A stretch of 64,000 bases of DNA from an uncultured bacterium (GTDB taxonomy: Bacteria; Planctomycetota; UBA8742; UBA2392), in the NCBI GenBank assembly GCA_938014885.1, contig CALLQI010000004.1:94578-158577 (forward strand), given 5' to 3'. The translations under genes were made by a program, and so were the position numbers. How positions within the stretch are numbered: the first letter of the stretch is position 1; each line of letters opens with the position of its first letter. The notes beneath the pieces were generated by a model. The model was not told the DNA's origin. It saw only the letters and a program-made list of their open reading frames with translations, and ran no database searches. Positions 25,450-33,933 of this stretch are shown here, piece after piece.

Positions 25450-25934
25450 GGCTGGTCCATTTCCTTCAGCTCGTTGGCGATGCGGCTGTCGAGCGTGCTG
25501 TCGTTGGCGGGCAGCGGCGCGGTCTCATCGGCGCTTTCTTCGGCGCTGGTGCGTTTGCGGGTGACGGTCCAGTAGCCAAAGCCGAACGCCGTCGCCAGCA
25601 CCGCCAGGCTGATCAGCAGCACCGGGTACAGGCTGCTGTTTTCGGGCACCTGCAGCACTTCGGGCCCGAAGCGCTTCACCATCTCCTGCTTGACTTGCCC
25701 GGCGCTGAGTTTGGGGTCGCGCACCAGCTCACGCAGATAGGAGCGCTCGGCGTCTTTTGAGCTGCACACGTTGTGGCTGCACGTGAGCAGGTTTTCGCGG
25801 CAGCCGCAAATGCAGAATAACTGTTCGCCGACTTCCTGGTACAGGCGCTCGGCGTCGTCAGGCGCTCGGGTCTGGGCGCTTAGCGGTGTCGCCAGGGGCG
25901 CGGCAACCAGTAGCAGCAGGATCAGCAGCTTCAT
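25446..25934 (-). CDS. ccmH: Cytochrome c-type biogenesis protein CcmH/NrfF family with an atypical C-I-C-G-C motif
   Basis: Signal peptide, then LFCICGCRENLLTCS aligned to the CcmH LRCxxCQNQ thiol motif, and a C-terminal TM; sits 3-prime of ccmF. Confidence 0.6.
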   Translation of the reverse strand: MKLLILLLLVAAPLATPLSAQTRAPDDAERLYQEVGEQLFCICGCRENLLTCSHNVCSSKDAERSYLRELVRDPKLSAGQVKQEMVKRFGPEVLQVPENSSLYPVLLISLAVLATAFGFGYWTVTRKRTSAEESADETAPLPANDSTLDSRIANELKEMDQP

Positions 25935-28900
25935 GCCTTCCTCCGGCGGCGCATCGTCGGAAGGAAGGCCATCACCGTGCCCAGCGCAATGATCGTGAGG
26001 CCGGTGAGGCCCATCAGCATCTGCGGCTTGATGAAGAAGCGGAAGGTGCCGGTGCCGTCAAGCTGCACGTCCTGCAGGATGAAGTAGAAGTCGCCGCTGA
26101 CGCGCCGGTGGATCGCGGGATCTTTGATCGCTTCCTGGGCGCGCGGCGCACCAGTGCGCTTGTCGTAGAACACGCGCATTCCCGGCGTCAGCGACATGGC
26201 GTCAGCTTCAATCACCGCGATTTCAGCGTCGATGCGGGTCAGTGCCTCGGCCATGCCCGTTATCTCGGCTTCTTTGCGCGCCATTCGCAGGCCCGCCAGG
26301 CTCAGCGGCCGCAGGCTTGTGAGCGCCTTTTGCGACTCGTCATTACCTGCGCCCTGCAGAACGATGTTGCGAACCATTTCGTTGCGCGTCTCGACAGCGT
26401 GGGCCTCAAGCGCGACCGTAAGTTGCTCAAGGCGCTGCATGACTTCAAAGCGGCGGGCCAGGAAGTCGCGTTCATCGACATCCAGGCCAAAGGTCTGGGC
26501 GAATTGCCCGTCGCCCTGGCCGCCGGCCTGCTCCAGCACCATCTTGTGCACTTCCGGCTGCTCGGCCCCCAGCAGCACGCCTTCTTCAGCTGCGGTCTTG
26601 AACGCGCGCTCGATTTCATCCAGCCGCGCGTTCAGTGCGGCGCGGATTGCGCTGACTTTCTCAGGCGACAGGCCGGAAATCGCGCCTTCAAGCTGGCTCT
26701 GTCGCGCGAATTCGGCGTCTGTGGCGGCCTTCAACCGCGCGCGTCCGGAAGCCCACTCCACGGGGAATTGCGCGCCCGCGCCCAGCGCGCCGCGCACGAA
26801 CATGCTGGCCAGCAGTTGCCCGGCCTCAGCGTCGCTTGCGACCCCCACCGGTGCCGTGAACGCAAGCCGCTGCGCCTCGCCAAATGCCTTGATGTAAGCG
26901 TCCGTGTCCAGCCTGGCGGGCGGCGTGTAAGCAAAGATGCGCAGGCTGCTGTCGAAGCGCTCGTACACGACTTTGCGGTCGCGCTGGTTGGCACCCCAGA
27001 TCAGCGCTGCTGCCATGCGCGGGAACGCCTGCTGCAATTGCGGCGGCCACTCGTCGCCGAACTCGCGGTCGAAGTCAGCCTTTTGCGCGGCGACCAGCGC
27101 GTTGGCGTCCTTGTCCGGGTTCTGCCGCACGTAGCGCAGCATGTTCTCGTACACGGCTGCGCGTTCCGGGTCGCGGGCGAAGATTTCCTGCACCGCGTCC
27201 CAGCCCTCAGTGCGCGAGTTGTCGTCGTACACGACCAGCCAGCGTGTGGCCGTAAGCTTGTCTTCCAGCACCGCATAGCCGCCCGGCCGCGCGATCACGG
27301 TGCCTTCAGCCTCATAGAAGCTGCTGTAGTAAATGCCCAGCGCGATCAGCAGCACGCCGATGTGAACGATGTAGCCGCCGTAGCGCCGCCGGTTGGCCAG
27401 GCTGACCTTCAGCATCGCCACGGCCACATTCTCGCGGGTGCTGCGGCTGCGGGCGCGGGCGCCGGCAAAGAATTCCATGACGATGCAGGTGAAGGTGAAG
27501 GCGCAGATCGGCCACAGCGTCAGCTGCACGCACAGCCGCACGGCCGCTGCCGCGTTGGCGATGGTATCGTCACGCCCGAGCTCAATCAGCAGCTCGCTGC
27601 GCATCAGCCAGATCGTGTTCACGACCCCCACCAGGATTGCGGCCGCGACCGGTGCTGTGAACGCGCGCACAAGCTGCTTGCCGCTGTTGCGATGCCACGC
27701 CAGCGACGGGCCAATGCCCATCAGGATCAGCGTCAGCAGGAACAGCGGGATGTTGATCATGATGAAGGCGTCGGGCCCAAGCTCAGTGCCTTCCTTCAGC
27801 CCGTACAGGTTGCGCGTGATCACGGGCCAGAAGGTGATCACCAGCGTCACCAGTGCAATCGCGATCAGCGCCAGGTTGTTCAGCAGGAAGCTGCCCTCGC
27901 GCGAGACGATGTTTTCGAGGCGGCGGTCCGGCTTCAGCAGCGGGTAGCGCCAGACCACGGCCAGCAGGCTGCCGATCAGCACCACGCCGAGAAAGCCATA
28001 GAACCAGACATCCACGTCGCCGGTGGCACCAAAGGCGTGCACGCTGTTGATGATGCCGCTGCGCACCAGGAAGGTGCCGATCACGGTCATGCAGTACGTG
28101 ATGATGATCAGCGCGAACGACCACATGCGCAGGATGCCCCGGCGCTCGGTCACGATCACCGAATGGATGAACGCGGTGCCGGTCAGCCACGGGATGAAGC
28201 TGGCGTTTTCAACCGGGTCCCAGGCCCAATAGCCGCCCCAGCCTAGAATCTCATAGGCCCACAGCCCGCCCAGCGCGATGCCGATGGTCAAAAAGCCCCA
28301 GGCCGCCATCGTCCACAGGCGAATCGGCCGCAGCCAGCCTTCGCCTACTTCGCCCGCCAGCAGGCTGCCGACGGCGTACGCAAAGGGCACGGTCAGGCCG
28401 ACGAAGCCCAGGTACAGCATGGGCGGGTGAATCGCGACCCAGTAGTTGTGCAGGGCCGGGTTCATGCCGTTGCCGTCGTAGCACTGGTCGATCAGCGCCT
28501 TCTGCACCTCGGGTGAAAGCTTGGCCGGGTCGGTCAGGATCAGCCGGTGGATCTCGGCCAGTTTCAGGTTCTCGCCGCCCGACAGGTACGCCTGCTGGAT
28601 CAGGTGGATCATGTCGTTGGGGCCGCGGAAGCCGGGCTTGGCCATGGCCTCACCGACGGTCAGCGTGCCGTGCCAGTACAGCAGGCGCTTGTCTTCATCC
28701 AACGTCGCCCCCACCAGCCAGTTGTAGCTCAGCGCAAAGGGGCTGCTGCGCTGTGCGGCCTCGGTGACGCTGGGCTCAAGCGCAAAGAACGAGGCCATGT
28801 CCGAGGGGCTGGTAATAATGAAGAAGAAAAAGAACTGCACCACCGAAAGCACCAGCAGTACCCACGGCAAACGCCGGTCCGTGCGGTTGTGGCGCTGGGT

Positions 28901-29281
28901 GAAGGCAAACGTCGCCGAAAACCCGGTCAGGATGAAGCACCAGAAAAGCAGGCTGCCCTGCTGGCTTGCCCATAAGGCGCTGATCTTGAAGGCAAGCTCT
29001 TCGTTGTGTTCGGTGACGTGCTGGACATATCCGACGAAGAAGTAGCCGTTGAAGATGCCCACATACAGCAGCACGCAGCAGAACGCCGTCAGCGCAAACA
29101 GCGCGTACTGCGCGCGCCGTGCGGCATGGGCCAGCCGTTCATCCTTGCGCCACACGGCGGCGATACTCAGCCCCAGCGTGAACAGGATGAACAACAGGCC
29201 GAACTGCAGCGCCGCCTGCCCGGTCTGCATCAGCCGGATAGCCGAGGAAAGCTGCTCAATGGTTTCGATGCGGGCCAGCAT
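25931..29281 (-). CDS. ccmF: Cytochrome c heme lyase CcmF, unusually long (1116 aa) with an insertion of about 370 aa in the C-terminal periplasmic domain
   Basis: WWD signature WGGYWAWDPVEN, multiple TM helices, CcmF C-terminal block ...RVFYDKRTGAPRAQ...DFYFILQDVQ...GTFRFFIKPQMLMGLTGLTIIALG. The region EGTVIARPGGYAVLED...AMSLTPGM has no counterpart in typical 650-aa CcmF. Confidence 0.85.
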   Translation of the reverse strand: MLARIETIEQLSSAIRLMQTGQAALQFGLLFILFTLGLSIAAVWRKDERLAHAARRAQYALFALTAFCCVLLYVGIFNGYFFVGYVQHVTEHNEELAFKISALWASQQGSLLFWCFILTGFSATFAFTQRHNRTDRRLPWVLLVLSVVQFFFFFIITSPSDMASFFALEPSVTEAAQRSSPFALSYNWLVGATLDEDKRLLYWHGTLTVGEAMAKPGFRGPNDMIHLIQQAYLSGGENLKLAEIHRLILTDPAKLSPEVQKALIDQCYDGNGMNPALHNYWVAIHPPMLYLGFVGLTVPFAYAVGSLLAGEVGEGWLRPIRLWTMAAWGFLTIGIALGGLWAYEILGWGGYWAWDPVENASFIPWLTGTAFIHSVIVTERRGILRMWSFALIIITYCMTVIGTFLVRSGIINSVHAFGATGDVDVWFYGFLGVVLIGSLLAVVWRYPLLKPDRRLENIVSREGSFLLNNLALIAIALVTLVITFWPVITRNLYGLKEGTELGPDAFIMINIPLFLLTLILMGIGPSLAWHRNSGKQLVRAFTAPVAAAILVGVVNTIWLMRSELLIELGRDDTIANAAAAVRLCVQLTLWPICAFTFTCIVMEFFAGARARSRSTRENVAVAMLKVSLANRRRYGGYIVHIGVLLIALGIYYSSFYEAEGTVIARPGGYAVLEDKLTATRWLVVYDDNSRTEGWDAVQEIFARDPERAAVYENMLRYVRQNPDKDANALVAAQKADFDREFGDEWPPQLQQAFPRMAAALIWGANQRDRKVVYERFDSSLRIFAYTPPARLDTDAYIKAFGEAQRLAFTAPVGVASDAEAGQLLASMFVRGALGAGAQFPVEWASGRARLKAATDAEFARQSQLEGAISGLSPEKVSAIRAALNARLDEIERAFKTAAEEGVLLGAEQPEVHKMVLEQAGGQGDGQFAQTFGLDVDERDFLARRFEVMQRLEQLTVALEAHAVETRNEMVRNIVLQGAGNDESQKALTSLRPLSLAGLRMARKEAEITGMAEALTRIDAEIAVIEADAMSLTPGMRVFYDKRTGAPRAQEAIKDPAIHRRVSGDFYFILQDVQLDGTGTFRFFIKPQMLMGLTGLTIIALGTVMAFLPTMRRRRKA

Positions 29282-29301
29282 GAGCGAAAGCCTGCGTCCC
29301 G

Positions 29302-29751
29302 CTAGGGTTGGGGCGCCTGGGCCTCAGTGATTTCCTTGCCTTCGTAACGCGACGGGCACTGGGTTTGCATCTCAGTCGCCATGAAGACGCCTTTGGCGGC
29401 GTCATAGCGCCCGGTAAGTGTGACGTGGGCTGCCTTCTTGAGTCCCTGGGGCACATCGTCGCCTTCATAGATGACCATGATCTGGCGGGCGTTGGCACTT
29501 GGCTGCGCGCCCTCAGGCGGGATGTCGATGGCGGTGAAGCGCGTGGGCTTGAAGTCGTGCAGGATGTCCACGACCTGGGCCTTCACCTTCACCCGTTCAC
29601 CGTCGTAGTCGCTGCCGGTAAGCTGGCCAACGTCGCGATACTCAACGCCGCCTTCATACAGCGCAAGCGTCACCGCACCGCCGATGGCGGCCACGAACAG
29701 CAGAATCACGATCACGATCTTGACGCTCATGTAAGGCTCCGCGCCCATCAT
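29302..29751 (-). CDS. ccmE: Heme chaperone CcmE, CxxxY variant
   Basis: N-terminal TM, OB-fold region, heme-attachment segment ATEMQTQCPSRY where canonical CcmE has LAKHDENY; the His is replaced by Cys. Confidence 0.8.
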   Translation of the reverse strand: MMGAEPYMSVKIVIVILLFVAAIGGAVTLALYEGGVEYRDVGQLTGSDYDGERVKVKAQVVDILHDFKPTRFTAIDIPPEGAQPSANARQIMVIYEGDDVPQGLKKAAHVTLTGRYDAAKGVFMATEMQTQCPSRYEGKEITEAQAPQP

Positions 29752-30001
29752 GGGGCACGCAAATCGTTATAACAGGGGCAGTCACGGCCACAAGCAAAAC
29801 GCCCGGCGGCCGTGACCATGAAACGCGGCAGGCCTGTGCAAGCTTCGCCAATTCCGCCGGATGCTGCAGGAAAGTGCCCGGCGCTGTGACCTGCCGCAAA
29901 ACGCACCACTTTTCTGCCCATCCGCGGGCTTGCGGCTAAACGCTTTCGCGGCCGGGGCTTGCCTGCTATACCGGAAGGTCCGACACCGATAAGGAATCAC
30001 C

Positions 30002-31597
30002 ATGGCTAAGCGAGATATGGGCACTCGCAGCATCAAGCTGCCGGGCGGCGGCCAGCCGCCGCAGCCGCAACGTCCTTCCGGGCGCGCGCCGGCACCATCG
30101 GCGCCGAACAGCGACGTCGGCCGCGCAATGAGCGCGCTGGACGCCAACGCCGAAGTACGCGACCGCAGCCAGTTGCCCGCCAAGGTGAAGGTGATCACCC
30201 CGCAGGTGATCATGGGCATCGTGCAGAGCATCACCGACAAGTTCGGGATGGAGATCGACCGCGACGAATTTAACCAGCTGGTGCTGGCCCAGACGCAGAA
30301 CGAAATGCGCCTTCAGCAGGCCCAGGACCGGATTGAGCAATACAAGGGCGAGTACAAGAAGATCTACGACGCCTACGTGCAGTTGCAGCAGTCGATGAAA
30401 CAGTTGCAGGCCGGCGCCATGGGCAACCAGGAAATCGCCCAGCAGTACGAAGAACAAATCGCCGAGCTGCAGCAGCGCAACGCCCAGGCCGTCGACACCT
30501 ACATGTCGATCCAGCAGCAGCTGGATGAGACCACCGCAGCATATGAGCAGTTGCAGGATCAGATGCAGGCCGGCCTGTCCGAGCGCGAGCAGGACATCGC
30601 GCAGATGCAGCAGGAACTGGAAGAGCTGCGCGCCCAAGCCGGTAACTCTGCAGAGATTGAACAGCTTCGCACGCAAGTCGAATACCTCGAAGGCCAACTG
30701 GCGCAGGTTGAAAGCAGCAGCGCCCAGGCCAGCGAGGGCCTGAACCAGGAAGCCGACGCCCGCCAGGCCGCCGAGCAAGAACGCGACGAAGCCATCAGCC
30801 GCGCCAACGCCATCGAAGCCGAATTGCAGGCCCTTCAGCAGCAGCTGGAAGAAGAACGCCAGCAGGCCGAAACCATCCGCGCCGAAGCCGAACAACTGAA
30901 GCAGGAAGCCGAAAGCGCGGGCCAAAGCGCCGGTGCCGAAGTCGATGAACTCAAGCGCAAGCTGAAGGAAAGCGAACGCAGCCGCGCCAAGCTCGAGAAC
31001 ATGGAGATTGAACTCGAGAAGCTGCGCACGGCCGAAGGCGCGTGGCTTGAAGACAAGCGCCGCCTTGCCAGCCAGCTCAGCAACGAAACCAACAACCGCC
31101 GTGCCGCCGAAGAAAAGCTCAAGGCCATCGAAATGGGCGAAGTCCTGCCCGAGGCCGCCAAGGGCGCCGAAGAAAAGGCCAAAAAGGCCGAAGCCGCCGC
31201 CGCCGAAGCGCAAAAGCAGGTCGCCGAGCTCAAGAAGGAACTCGAGAAGGCCAAGGCCGGCGCAAGCAAAGCCGACAGCATGAGCGGCGAGTTGCAGCAG
31301 GCCAAGGACGCGCTGGCCAAGACCCAGGCTGAACTGAAGCAGCTTGAGGCCGACCTGGCCAAGTCAGGCAACGCGGCCAAAGAACTGGGCATGCTCAAGC
31401 GCAAGTTCGAAAACGTTGAGTCCGAACTCGAGGGCCTGCGCGCCGCCGAAGGCAAGTGGCTGGAAGAAAAGCGTCGCATGGCGGCCCAGCTCAGCAACGA
31501 AACCAACCTGCGCCGAGAGTTGGAAGACAAGTACAAATCCGAACTGAATGAAGCCCGCGCCGAAACTGAGGCCGGAAAAAAAAACTCCAGGCAGTAA
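30002..31597 (+). CDS. Coiled-coil protein, N-terminal portion (531 aa) ending just after an A9 tract
   Basis: Almost entirely heptad-like E/Q/A/L/K/R sequence. The stop TAA at 31595..31597 lies inside a hairpin immediately after the A9 run at 31576..31584. Confidence 0.6.
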   Translation: MAKRDMGTRSIKLPGGGQPPQPQRPSGRAPAPSAPNSDVGRAMSALDANAEVRDRSQLPAKVKVITPQVIMGIVQSITDKFGMEIDRDEFNQLVLAQTQNEMRLQQAQDRIEQYKGEYKKIYDAYVQLQQSMKQLQAGAMGNQEIAQQYEEQIAELQQRNAQAVDTYMSIQQQLDETTAAYEQLQDQMQAGLSEREQDIAQMQQELEELRAQAGNSAEIEQLRTQVEYLEGQLAQVESSSAQASEGLNQEADARQAAEQERDEAISRANAIEAELQALQQQLEEERQQAETIRAEAEQLKQEAESAGQSAGAEVDELKRKLKESERSRAKLENMEIELEKLRTAEGAWLEDKRRLASQLSNETNNRRAAEEKLKAIEMGEVLPEAAKGAEEKAKKAEAAAAEAQKQVAELKKELEKAKAGASKADSMSGELQQAKDALAKTQAELKQLEADLAKSGNAAKELGMLKRKFENVESELEGLRAAEGKWLEEKRRMAAQLSNETNLRRELEDKYKSELNEARAETEAGKKNSRQ

Positions 31598-31608
31598 CTG
31601 AACTGGAG
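31576..31608 (+). other. Slippery A_AAA_AAA heptamer (inside an A9 run) plus an adjacent 6-bp hairpin; candidate -1 frameshift or transcriptional slippage site
   Basis: gcc GGA AAA AAA AAC tcc ag...; CUCCAG (31585..31590) pairs with CUGGAG (31603..31608) around the in-frame stop. The -1 frame continues as KKKLQAVTELESQRDKAHRDREVSDRSLQVIEQECDSLRKQRDSLAQQLETLRAGGG..., joining ORF 31708..33933. Confidence 0.4.
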
Positions 31609-31707
31609 TCGCAGCGCGACAAAGCACACCGCGACCGCGAAGTCAGCGACCGATCACTGCAAGTCATCGAACAGGAATGTGACAGCCTTCGCAAACAGCG
31701 CGATTCG

Positions 31708-33933
31708 TTGGCGCAACAGCTTGAGACATTGCGTGCCGGTGGCGGCGAGAAAGCAGCCGAACTACAGGCCGCGCTGGCCGACGCCCAGGCCAACCTGAAG
31801 GATGCCGAGCACAAGCTGGCCGCACGTCAGGAACACGTCGCCAAGATCGCCGCCGAGTACGACGAACTGCGCAAAAAGCTCGCGGCCGCCGAAGCCGACG
31901 CAGCCGCGAAGGCCGAGCAACTGAAGGGTGCCAGCGCCGACAGCGACCGCCTGACCGCCCTGGACACGCAGTTGCACGACCAGGCCGAGGCGCTGGCCCG
32001 CGCCAAGGCCCAACTGGGCGAACGCGACGCCGAGCTTGAGAAAGCCGCAGCCGAGCAAGCCAAGCTGCGCACCGACCTTCGCACCACCGAGGCCGCGCGC
32101 GAAGCCCTTGCCCGCGAAGCCGACGAACTGCGCCGCCTGATGCAGGAAATGAACGACGCCAACCGCGCCGATGCGGAAGGCATCAACGACCGCGTAGAGG
32201 CCGTCGAGCGCCAACTGAAGGAAAAGGAAGACGCAGCCGCCCAGGCCGAGCTCGAGCGCGACGAAATTGCCGCGCAACTCAAAGACGCCCAGGCCGAAGT
32301 GCAAACCGCGCGCGCCGCCCGCGACGCCGCCCAGCAGTCCGCTGAACAAGCCGCCGAACAGGCCGAAGCCCTGCGCAAGCGCATCGGCGAACTCGAACGC
32401 AACGCCGGCCAGGCCGATGAGCTGCAGCGCCGCCTCGAAGGCCGCGACCGCCAGATTGAAGTGGCGCAGCAGCAGATCGCCGACCTGAAAGAAGAACTGA
32501 AGCTGGAAGAGGAAGAACGCAACCGGGCAGCCACCCAGTTGCAGCAGGCCCGCGACGCGGAAACCCGCGCCGTCGAACAACTGGAAGCAGCCGAGCAAGA
32601 GATCGCGGACCTGAAGGAAAAGCTGGCCGAGGCCGAACAGGCCGGAAGCTCGCAGAACGAGGCACTAGCCAGCCAGGCCGAGACCCTGCGCGAGCAGTTG
32701 AATGCGGCCCAGGACGCGGCCGAACAGGCCGGCCGCGAAGCACGCGAAGCCCGCCGCAACGCCGAGGACCTGACCGAGCGACTTGAGCAGGCACAGGCCG
32801 ACGCAGAGGCCGCCCGCGAAGCCCTGGAAAAGGCCAAAGCCGACGAAAGCGCGCTCAAGCCGCTGCGTGACGAAAACGCCGCGCTGAAGGCCCGCAACGA
32901 AGAGATCACCCGCAAACGCGACGAAGTCCTGCGCGGGCTGGAGACCGCAGTGGGCGAGCTGGACGCGCTGAAGGAAGTCATCGCCGGACGCGACGTGGAC
33001 CTGCGCACCGCCCGCGGTGAACTGGCCGAAAGCCGCGCCGAGGCTGAACAGCTTCGCAAGCAGCTTGAGGCCAAACAGGCCGAAGCCAGCGCGCTGGCCG
33101 GCAAGTCGACCGAAGGCGAACGTGAGCTGCGCAACAAACTGGAAAGCGCGACGGAAAAGCGCTTCGAAGCCGAGAAGGCGCTGGTCGAGGCCAAGGCACG
33201 CCTCGACAGCGAACAGCAGATGCGCGCCGAACAGCAGCGCCGCATTGAGCAGCTGGAAGACGCGCTGCGCCGCGAACGCGAGCAGGTGGACAAGTCCGCC
33301 CCGGCCGAGGCCCTGACGACCCTTTCAGGCCAGCTCGCCAGCGAACGCCAGAAGTGGGAACGCCTGACTGAGCAAAAGGACCGCGAAGCTGCCGAGCTGC
33401 AAAAGAAGCTGGACGAAGCCGAGTTGCGCGAGAACGAACTCGCAAGCCAGCTTGAAAGCGTGGAGCTGAGCCAGCAGGACGTAATGCGCGCCAAAGCCGT
33501 CGCAGGCCAGCGCCGCGCGCAGATCGAGCGCATGCAAAGCGACGTCGAAGGCGCACGCCGCCAGGCCAAAGAGGCCGAGACCTACTGGAAGTCAGAGATG
33601 ACCGAGTTCCAGCAAGAAGTGGCAGCACACCTTGAAGCCGCCGAAAACGGCGAAGAGGGCAGCGACGCGCGGCTGCAGAAGCTGATGGAAAAGCTGAAAG
33701 TCGGCATCGCCGACAAGTACGCCAAGCTGCGCCGCAAAGCCACCCGCACCGAAAAAGAGCTGCAGCAGACGCAGGACAAGCTGGCGGCGGTCGAGCGCGT
33801 CATGGCCAAGCGCGAAGAAGAAGAAGCGCGGCTGCGCAAACTGATCGAAGAAATGGAAGCCCGCGAGAACATCCCGGGCGCCAAGAAGCCTGAGGCGGAG
33901 CCCAAGAAGAAACCCGCGCGCAAGAAGAAGTAG
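31708..33933 (+). CDS. Coiled-coil protein, C-terminal portion (at least 741 aa); the -1 frame is open all the way back to the A9 tract
   Basis: Same E/A/Q/R/L-rich heptad composition as 30002..31597. The ORF-track start at 31708 is only a TTG; no independent SD or ATG. Ends KKPEAEPKKKPARKKK. Confidence 0.55.
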   Translation: MAQQLETLRAGGGEKAAELQAALADAQANLKDAEHKLAARQEHVAKIAAEYDELRKKLAAAEADAAAKAEQLKGASADSDRLTALDTQLHDQAEALARAKAQLGERDAELEKAAAEQAKLRTDLRTTEAAREALAREADELRRLMQEMNDANRADAEGINDRVEAVERQLKEKEDAAAQAELERDEIAAQLKDAQAEVQTARAARDAAQQSAEQAAEQAEALRKRIGELERNAGQADELQRRLEGRDRQIEVAQQQIADLKEELKLEEEERNRAATQLQQARDAETRAVEQLEAAEQEIADLKEKLAEAEQAGSSQNEALASQAETLREQLNAAQDAAEQAGREAREARRNAEDLTERLEQAQADAEAAREALEKAKADESALKPLRDENAALKARNEEITRKRDEVLRGLETAVGELDALKEVIAGRDVDLRTARGELAESRAEAEQLRKQLEAKQAEASALAGKSTEGERELRNKLESATEKRFEAEKALVEAKARLDSEQQMRAEQQRRIEQLEDALRREREQVDKSAPAEALTTLSGQLASERQKWERLTEQKDREAAELQKKLDEAELRENELASQLESVELSQQDVMRAKAVAGQRRAQIERMQSDVEGARRQAKEAETYWKSEMTEFQQEVAAHLEAAENGEEGSDARLQKLMEKLKVGIADKYAKLRRKATRTEKELQQTQDKLAAVERVMAKREEEEARLRKLIEEMEARENIPGAKKPEAEPKKKPARKKK

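Follow-up and report, generated by a model that had tools for sequence, protein, structure and literature searches.

The stretch analysed here, hereafter the window, comprises 64,000 nucleotides (nt) from an uncultured bacterium of the Planctomycetota (contig CALLQI010000004.1, positions 94,578 to 158,577) and carries a gene for a long coiled-coil protein that is interrupted at a run of nine A residues. The GC content of the window is 64%; the A9 tract is its longest homopolymer, and the next longest are three runs of 7. The first open reading frame (ORF1) starts with an ATG that has AAGGA (29991..29995) 6 nt upstream, and its zero frame ends with GGA AAA AAA AAC TCC AGG CAG TAA. The -1 frame is open from after a TGA (31567..31569) to a TAG (33931..33933) and reads ...GRKKKLQAVTELESQRDKAHRD.... 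ORF2, as we call this second frame, has a TTG at 31708 as its first start-like codon, in agreement with the initial annotation of the window, which had described it as lacking an ATG and a Shine-Dalgarno sequence of its own. The invariant residues R551, S552, L553, V555 and E557 are encoded at about 31651..31671, upstream of that codon. One A added to the tract gives an uninterrupted protein of 1310 amino acids (aa), and the tract is decoded as the family-invariant KKK after either an additional A or a -1 ribosomal shift. The trans-frame peptide of the long form would be EAGKKKLQAVTELESQR and the C-terminus of the short form AETEAGKKNSRQ. The separation of ORF1 from an open -1 frame by the A9 run, the phase of A_AAA_AAA in the zero frame (GGA AAA AAA AAC) and the fused length of roughly 1300 aa had all been claimed in the initial annotation and were confirmed in the sequence. 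Coordinates are collected in Table 1.

Table 1. Window positions of the two reading frames and of the elements around the A9 tract.
Feature	Position	Strand	Remarks
ORF1, zero frame, 531-aa short product	30002..31597	+	ends ...ETEAGKKNSRQ, then stop
A9 tract, recoding site	31576..31584	+	zero frame GG(A AAA AAA AA)C
Zero-frame stop TAA, 3 codons past the tract	31595..31597	+	same position in all 16 shifted loci
TGA ending the third frame, 4 codons past the tract	31599..31601	+	would also end slippage products outside the long frame
-1-frame continuation (ORF2), 782 codons and TAG	31585..33933	+	C-terminal 60% of the ~1310-aa long product; TAG at 33931..33933
Only stretch able to join both ORFs by a frame change	31570..31594	+	between TGA 31567..31569 and TAA 31595..31597; includes A9
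Predicted hairpin around the UAA, 7-bp stem and 3-bp inner stem	31584..31609	+	pairs 31584..31590 with 31603..31609 (ACUCCAG/CUGGAGU)
GC-rich hairpin CCG.GCC-N8-GGCCGG, ends one base before the tract	31555..31575	+	in the window and several relatives

When the fused sequence was compared with a database of 5.8 billion proteins, six homologues of 874-1289 aa were detected, each encoded by one ORF across the junction. All six have KKK at this position and the DNA is always AAA AAA AAA, in contexts such as GGG AAA AAA AAA CTC, GGT AAA AAA AAA CTG, GAC AAA AAA AAA ATA and CTC AAA AAA AAA CTC. Scanning one genome per species of GTDB revealed 20 loci, all in metagenome-assembled genomes (MAGs) of Planctomycetota; a metagenome scan added eight further loci, and L037-L040 came from additional look-ups. 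The relatives (labelled L001-L040) are all MAGs or metagenome contigs. Word-indexed protein searches found few family members (6 and 3 matches) and an exhaustive HMMER search eight representatives; the family is therefore small and known from metagenomes alone.

Exactly one A9 or A10 tract is present in each of the 35 related loci that cover the site, and it is never shorter. In several lineages the run is stretched to ten by an Ile codon that starts with A. AAA accounts for 22-39% of the Lys codons in the genes of the family and their other KKK runs are AAG-rich, yet AAA AAA AAA is invariant in 22/22 aligned sequences, in which the other invariant Lys columns are mostly AAG. Among the 130 columns of this codon alignment with an invariant, degenerate amino acid, only nine have an invariant codon: three form the consecutive AAA triplet, a minor codon, and six are GC-ending (TAC, CAG, CGC three times and AAG). 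Selection therefore acts on the tract at the nucleotide level. The initial annotation had called an A9 run very unusual in such GC-rich DNA, and a count of A/T runs bore this out. In 450 kb of non-redundant sequence from the window and related loci (58-68% GC), there were 38 runs of length 6, seven of length 7, none of 8, 22 of 9 and nine of 10, and all 31 runs of at least 8 were the tract site.

Two configurations of the tract were found. In 17 distinct loci the gene is in frame, with the tract in codon phase 0 or, in L038, as GGA followed by A10. Another 16 loci have the arrangement of the window (the window itself, L012-L017, L019-L023, L025, L026, L029 and L030) and comprise, besides the window, 13 species-representative MAGs from GTDB and two metagenome contigs. 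In these shifted loci the tract begins at the third position of a codon, the zero frame ends three codons past the tract and the -1 frame runs 590-990 codons onward, except in L023, where it was followed for only 344 codons, up to a run of N (scaffold gap). Type 1 shifted sequences read GCC GGA AAA AAA AAC TCC AGG CAG TAA (A9) and type 2 sequences CC GTA AAA AAA AAA TCG AAG AAG TAA (A10). The two types differ by substitutions alone, a G to T change on the 5' side of the run and a C to A change on its 3' side, and indels at the tract were seen in 0/16 loci. The in-frame sequence of L038, GGA AAA AAA AAA CTC, equals type 1 plus one A, which suggests, on sequence comparison, that the shifted state arose from an A10 ancestor by the loss of one base. 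A rough neighbour-joining tree placed the in-frame state in the outer clades and the shifted state in one large clade. In the orthologue comparison proposed in the initial annotation, the tract is kept throughout and the gene is one ORF in 17 loci and split in 16, while the hairpin around the UAA is not kept. That the in-frame orthologues would retain the tract as well had not been anticipated.

The shifted loci stem from different projects, and their contig names suggest assembly by SPAdes (NODE_...cov), MEGAHIT (k97), CLC and long single-contig assemblies; whether short or long reads were used was judged from these names alone. Isolate names, the sole basis for this, suggest that the samples behind the window and the shifted MAGs may largely be of wastewater type. 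In-frame A10 tracts were assembled intact in L003, L009, L010, L018 and L038, and L003 has a tig-style name like that of the shifted L013. Two assemblies showed irregularities. The JGI metagenome contig L037 (L037:247-4119) differs by five indels of one base each, every one of them in a homopolymer of C or A, which split the gene into four called ORFs; it looks like an error-prone assembly and makes a useful negative control. In L012 (MAG FR_29; L012:9939-10060) the sequence GCGCGAAAAAAGTACC contains A6 where L029 and L030 have A5 (compare L029:8439-8560 and L021:9942-10060). This extra A, near the 3' end, frameshifts the Lys-rich C-terminal tail into a spurious 1506-aa reading and looks like an ordinary homopolymer assembly error.

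Several observations concern the coding state of ORF2. Just past the tract, the variability at codon positions 1/2/3 of the -1 frame is 0.48/0.42/0.88, a third-position excess that marks this frame as coding from there, and ORF2 is conserved starting with the codon next to the tract. Close pairs of shifted species, separated by synonymous distances (dS) of 0.18-1.15, have ratios of nonsynonymous to synonymous substitution rates (dN/dS) of 0.08-0.17 in the ORF2 part and of 0.06-0.20 in the ORF1 part. ORF2 therefore appears to be translated and is constrained, and both halves of the gene are under purifying selection. Over this range of dS, synonymous sites were replaced but the tract did not change. 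The peptide RDKALKDRDVAERSLNVIEEENE, which hardly varies, precedes the first start-like codon in 11/14 shifted loci; in these 11, no ATG, GTG or TTG occurs from the ORF2-frame stop, which lies 9-54 nt before the tract, to at least 123 nt downstream of the tract. No promoter-like site that could serve ORF2 was found within the gene. For one relative an ORF1-only gene call ending ...EAGKKNSRQ exists (P0010, from the exhaustive HMMER search).

Behind the tract, the frame that is shorter than the long frame by one base meets a stop within 0-3 codons of KKK in 26/26 loci (gene medians 24-61), and the other off-frame closes within 3-19 codons of the tract in the same loci. The joint probability of both closures is 0.001-0.03 per locus. 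At least six different codon solutions are used, including the rare GTA-A, ATA-G and ATA-A, and it is from these rare codons of the long frame that the zero-frame stops of the shifted loci are made.

We are highly confident that the tract is a genuine conserved recoding site. In the clade of the window, the one-base split leaves slippage of polymerase or ribosome as the only route to the full protein. That one gene gives products of about 530 and about 1300 aa, as the initial annotation had proposed, is strongly supported by the sequence patterns described above, and of the mechanisms it listed both -1 frameshifting and dnaX-like slippage stay under consideration. With moderate confidence we place the main level of recoding at transcription, as RNA-polymerase slippage of the Thermus dnaX or Mg-chelatase type. 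A run of at least nine A inside the coding sequence, about the length of the RNA:DNA hybrid and of the kind that transcriptional slippage requires, is found in 35/35 loci, and its retention in both frame configurations points to RNA-polymerase slippage. This is also favoured by the lack of a conserved RNA structure and by the early closure of both off-frames after the tract.

Under polymerase slippage, standard decoding of the window DNA would yield the 531-aa N-terminal coiled-coil protein, ending at the stop three codons past the tract. When RNA polymerase stutters on the nine template T and adds one A, the mRNA would read GGA AAA AAA AAA CUC..., and its ordinary translation would give the full-length protein of about 1310 aa. 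The addition of one A is proposed by analogy with Thermus dnaX, in which slippage most often yields this product. For transcripts with any different number of A, translation would end at the stops 3-4 codons downstream. In the in-frame clades the long form would be the default and slippage would provide the short form; the clade of the window would have fixed a configuration shorter by 1 nt (A10 to A9 in GGA-AAA-AAA-AAA), with the default inverted and both products kept. We infer the slip at transcription rather than translation, the ratio of the products and the role of the two forms alike. The GC-rich hairpin upstream of the tract could act as a terminator-like aid to polymerase slippage, a hint only. 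Compared with all positions of the same genes, it ranked at a median percentile of 0.38 across the family and of about 0.13 in the shifted clade, which is not significant.

Some points weigh against this interpretation. The neighbour-joining tree is rough, and the in-frame L001 nests inside the shifted clade, beside L022 and L023. There is no isolate among the relatives. In the most distant in-frame clade (L004, L006, L007 and L024) the -1-frame stop lies 17-19 codons off and is not nearer than the gene median. The level of slippage is deduced from sequence, and since A_AAA_AAA is in phase in every configuration, ribosomal shifting or sliding could substitute for polymerase slippage or contribute to it. 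The need for two isoforms is an assumption.

The alternative that survives best, which we consider possible but rather unlikely, is programmed -1 ribosomal frameshifting or sliding on A_AAA_AAA or A_AAA_AAC, in which the mRNA would stay A9, a fraction of the ribosomes would move back by one base on the tandem Lys codons and read on into ORF2, and the junction would be the same GKKKLQAV.... Both heptamers are in phase in the window (A_AAA_AAA at 31576..31582 and A_AAA_AAC at 31579..31585), -1 is the required frame and it is open for 782 codons. Ribosomes slide on iterated AAA codons in E. coli (PMC4363877), and A_AAA_AAA is a known prokaryotic shift site (PMC3711429). Against a ribosomal event, seven A would be sufficient for it and A_AAA_AAG would be the better site, yet at least nine uninterrupted A are kept in 35/35 loci; likewise, a pure -1 shift has no need of the conserved stops in the frame reached by one A fewer or two A more. 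No tRNA genes were found in the window, where they had been sought for the tRNA-Lys repertoire.

The initial annotation had put forward a dnaX-type heptamer with a stimulatory hairpin that encloses the zero-frame UAA. Such a hairpin does fold in the window, stably and just downstream of the heptamers (predicted energy -21.6 kcal/mol for 31576..31640, z = -3.1). Classical -1 stimulators sit about 5-9 nt downstream of the slippery site; this hairpin begins 0-2 nt past the tract, too near for such a role. RNAalifold on 14 shifted sequences detected no structure near the tract and no covariation; the hairpin is absent from the 13 other shifted orthologues compared, in which single folds differ from locus to locus. 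We therefore rejected it as a conserved stimulator, and the emphasis of the initial annotation on a heptamer with such a hairpin is not supported. Reading the tract alignments by eye, we saw no conserved Shine-Dalgarno (SD)-like element at a suitable upstream spacing (~10-14 nt); an SD-like GAGG lies 4 nt upstream of the tract in type 1 only and is absent in type 2 (GCCGCCGT, GAGTCCGT).

Sequencing error, pseudogene, gene fission and phase variation are all very unlikely explanations. A phase-variable contingency locus, in which slipped-strand mispairing of the DNA toggles the long protein, would fit a coding homopolymer and the occurrence of in-frame and out-of-frame states in one family. We give this option of the initial annotation very little credence. 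State and run length are fixed within clades over the dS range given above (L013/15/20/25, L012/21/29/30 and L017/19), the only close pair that differs in frame state involves the error-ridden L037 (compared with L024), the ORF2 part is under purifying selection as strong as ORF1 in the presumed 'off' clade, and no signal peptide or surface-protein domain was detected. Gene fission or decay, with ORF1 and ORF2 expressed separately or ORF2 a dead remnant, would agree with the ORF1-only proteins output by gene callers (P0010) and with the TTG at 31708. It is just as improbable: most shifted loci (11/14) offer no start-like codon until at least 123 nt downstream, behind the most conserved peptide of the region, the low dN/dS of ORF2 and the lack of a promoter-like site inside the gene speak against it, and after a fission the tract would be free to decay, yet it is invariant.

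Least probable of all is a homopolymer error in sequencing or assembly that conceals a true A10 and an ordinary 1310-aa gene: runs of A9/A10 are prone to errors, the tract is A10 in L037 but A9 in the L024 gene, to which L037 is 99.4% identical, L012 gained an A in an A5 run in another part of the gene, and an in-frame GGA-A10 version exists in another lineage (L038), but L037 carries four further homopolymer indels in the same gene, unlike the clean shifted loci, the extra A of L012 is missing from the near-identical L029 and L030 although all three share the A9 split, A10 tracts were assembled correctly elsewhere, and the same split in the window and 15 other loci, from independent projects and assemblers (short- and long-read by their names), tracks phylogeny and shows no scatter in length.

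The protein is a long coiled coil without a recognisable domain. Profile searches against Pfam, NCBIfam and PDB returned no family above threshold, only sub-threshold coiled-coil matches. The NCBIfam matches to SMC/Rad50 coiled-coil arms reached 34-75 bits, compared with cut-offs of 567-1087, and covered coiled-coil segments only. We rejected an identity as an SMC/Rad50 ATPase on these scores, as no ABC ATPase head halves, hinge or zinc hook were found. An AlphaFold model of residues 1-140 showed a disordered P/Q-rich tail, two short helices and a long helix, with no globular domain (predicted local distance difference test, pLDDT, 64.7). The two short N-terminal helices are conserved (RDRSQLPxKVKVITPQVI...), as is the C-terminal region (GQRRAQIERMQ, HLEAAE, DKYAKLRR), whose last part is a basic tail. 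There are two copies of the motif LRxAEGxWLEEKRRxAxQLSNETNxRR, and about 20 residues separate the second of them from the tract. In the window the copies lie at 31022..31102 and 31436..31516 (fused residues ~341-367 and ~479-505) and read LRTAEGAWLEDKRRLASQLSNETNNRR and LRAAEGKWLEEKRRMAAQLSNETNLRR; nothing else in the N-terminal half is as well conserved across the family. Both repeats and the motifs at the N-terminus would be retained in the short form, which would end before the variable rod and so lack the conserved C-terminal region with its basic tail. A distant homologue of 614 aa with 26% identity is encoded in L039:1835-3679 and L040:1611-3455. It shares N-terminal (ELPDQVKVIT...) and C-terminal (AYWKKEM..., GKYSKLRKK) motifs, is without the long rod, and its A runs do not exceed 6.

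That two co-assembling forms serve a structural or scaffolding purpose is speculation. The cell biology of Planctomycetota is poorly understood. It is conceivable, if doubtful, that throughout the family the tract serves to set how much short and how much long coiled coil is made, by polymerase stutter, maybe in response to ATP or elongation rate, that its default was inverted in one clade by a single-base change with both products kept, and that the forms co-assemble into a cytoskeleton-like or nucleoid-associated structure. If so, the gene would be one of a small number of cellular genes, other than dnaX and not mobile, in which transcriptional recoding is obligatory and conserved.

Directly upstream of the coiled-coil gene and divergent from it, the window contains genes for a CcmF-like protein of 1116 aa, which extends far past its Pfam domains, and for a CcmE-like protein (25931..29751, - strand). 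Downstream, on the - strand, lie genes for an HtrA-like protease and a HemN-like radical SAM protein. Within 6 kb on either side of the related loci no match to the window neighbours CcmF, CcmE, HtrA-like, HemN-like, XseA, DHODH or DnaJ was found. In two in-frame loci (L003:3080-5792 and L007:2673-4719) the coiled-coil gene follows dnaB and 1-2 small unannotated ORFs on the same strand. This arrangement, seen in these two loci only and absent from the window, may hint weakly at a connection with replication or the nucleoid.

Programmed slippage on poly-A is known in kind; a search of the literature found neither this gene family nor its phylum nor the pairing of an in-frame with a shifted clade, and no paper that links Planctomycetes, this protein and slippage. 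Conserved programmed slippage is rare in cellular genes that are neither mobile nor viral, with dnaX, mxiE and Mg-chelatase among the few examples, and the present family would add a clean case in an uncultured Planctomycetota lineage. An in-frame clade beside an out-of-frame sister clade amounts to a natural experiment on the way in which a frameshift becomes tolerable, and is then fixed, in a gene with a slippery tract. The search of the 5.8-billion-protein database returned in-frame members only; from this and the ORF1-only call P0010 we infer that annotation pipelines take shifted members for frameshifted pseudogenes or list each as two hypothetical ORFs. If the site were recognised, a protein of about 1300 aa would be annotated correctly in at least 14 species-level genomes.

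Among known systems, the SMC/Rad50-type 'chromosome segregation ATPase', a label that some sources give to homologues, resembles the protein in its long heptad-rich coiled coil and weak arm matches to hidden Markov models, but differs by the low scores (34-75 bits, far under the cut-offs of 567-729) and the head and hinge domains that are missing here. With E. coli dnaX (A_AAA_AAG with SD element and hairpin) the locus shares an in-phase heptamer of Lys codons and two products per gene; unlike it, it has no conserved downstream hairpin and, by eye, no SD element at 10-14 nt, its heptamer ends in A instead of G and its run is at least 9 long. In Shigella flexneri mxiE, slippage on a T9/U run is needed for the longer product (PMC1088944). 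There, too, overlapping ORFs are fused by a non-templated nucleotide at a homopolymer into a longer protein; mxiE, however, encodes a small regulator on a virulence plasmid, and an in-frame orthologue clade that keeps the tract was not found for it in the literature searched. The IS630 element of Roseiflexus has a terminator-like stimulator hairpin upstream of its slippage tract (PMC5009743), which the hairpin abutting the tract in the window (31555..31575) resembles.

Closer parallels are the Mg-chelatase and two-ORF dnaX genes of the GeneTack survey (PMC3711429). Split and fused Mg-chelatase genes were described there, with 7/9/11 A giving 10/40/63% of shifted product when expressed in E. 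coli; reporters with A_AAA_AAA_AA yielded 40% of the frameshifted form in this host, and two-ORF dnaX genes (Chlorobi and others) carry A10. As in the coiled-coil family, these genes are fused in some species and elsewhere form two ORFs joined by a -1 change at 9-11 A, the window being of the two-ORF type, whereas gene family and phylum differ. The coiled-coil cluster is missing from the survey because it covered only two Planctomycetes genomes (PMC3711429).

The nearest counterpart is dnaX of Thermus thermophilus, in which transcripts gain A by slippage on A9 and the short form results from stops in the two off-frames (PMC1088944, PMC5009743). It differs from the present gene, an unrelated coiled coil without an ATPase, in the position of the tract, which lies about 40% through the gene here and not at seven-eighths, and in the default of the window's clade, which would be the short product. 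Both have A9 in the sense strand of a GC-rich cellular gene and near stops in both off-frames; a long and a short form made without need of an RNA stimulator, as in Thermus, are predicted here too, and the in-frame clades of the coiled-coil family have exactly the Thermus dnaX layout.

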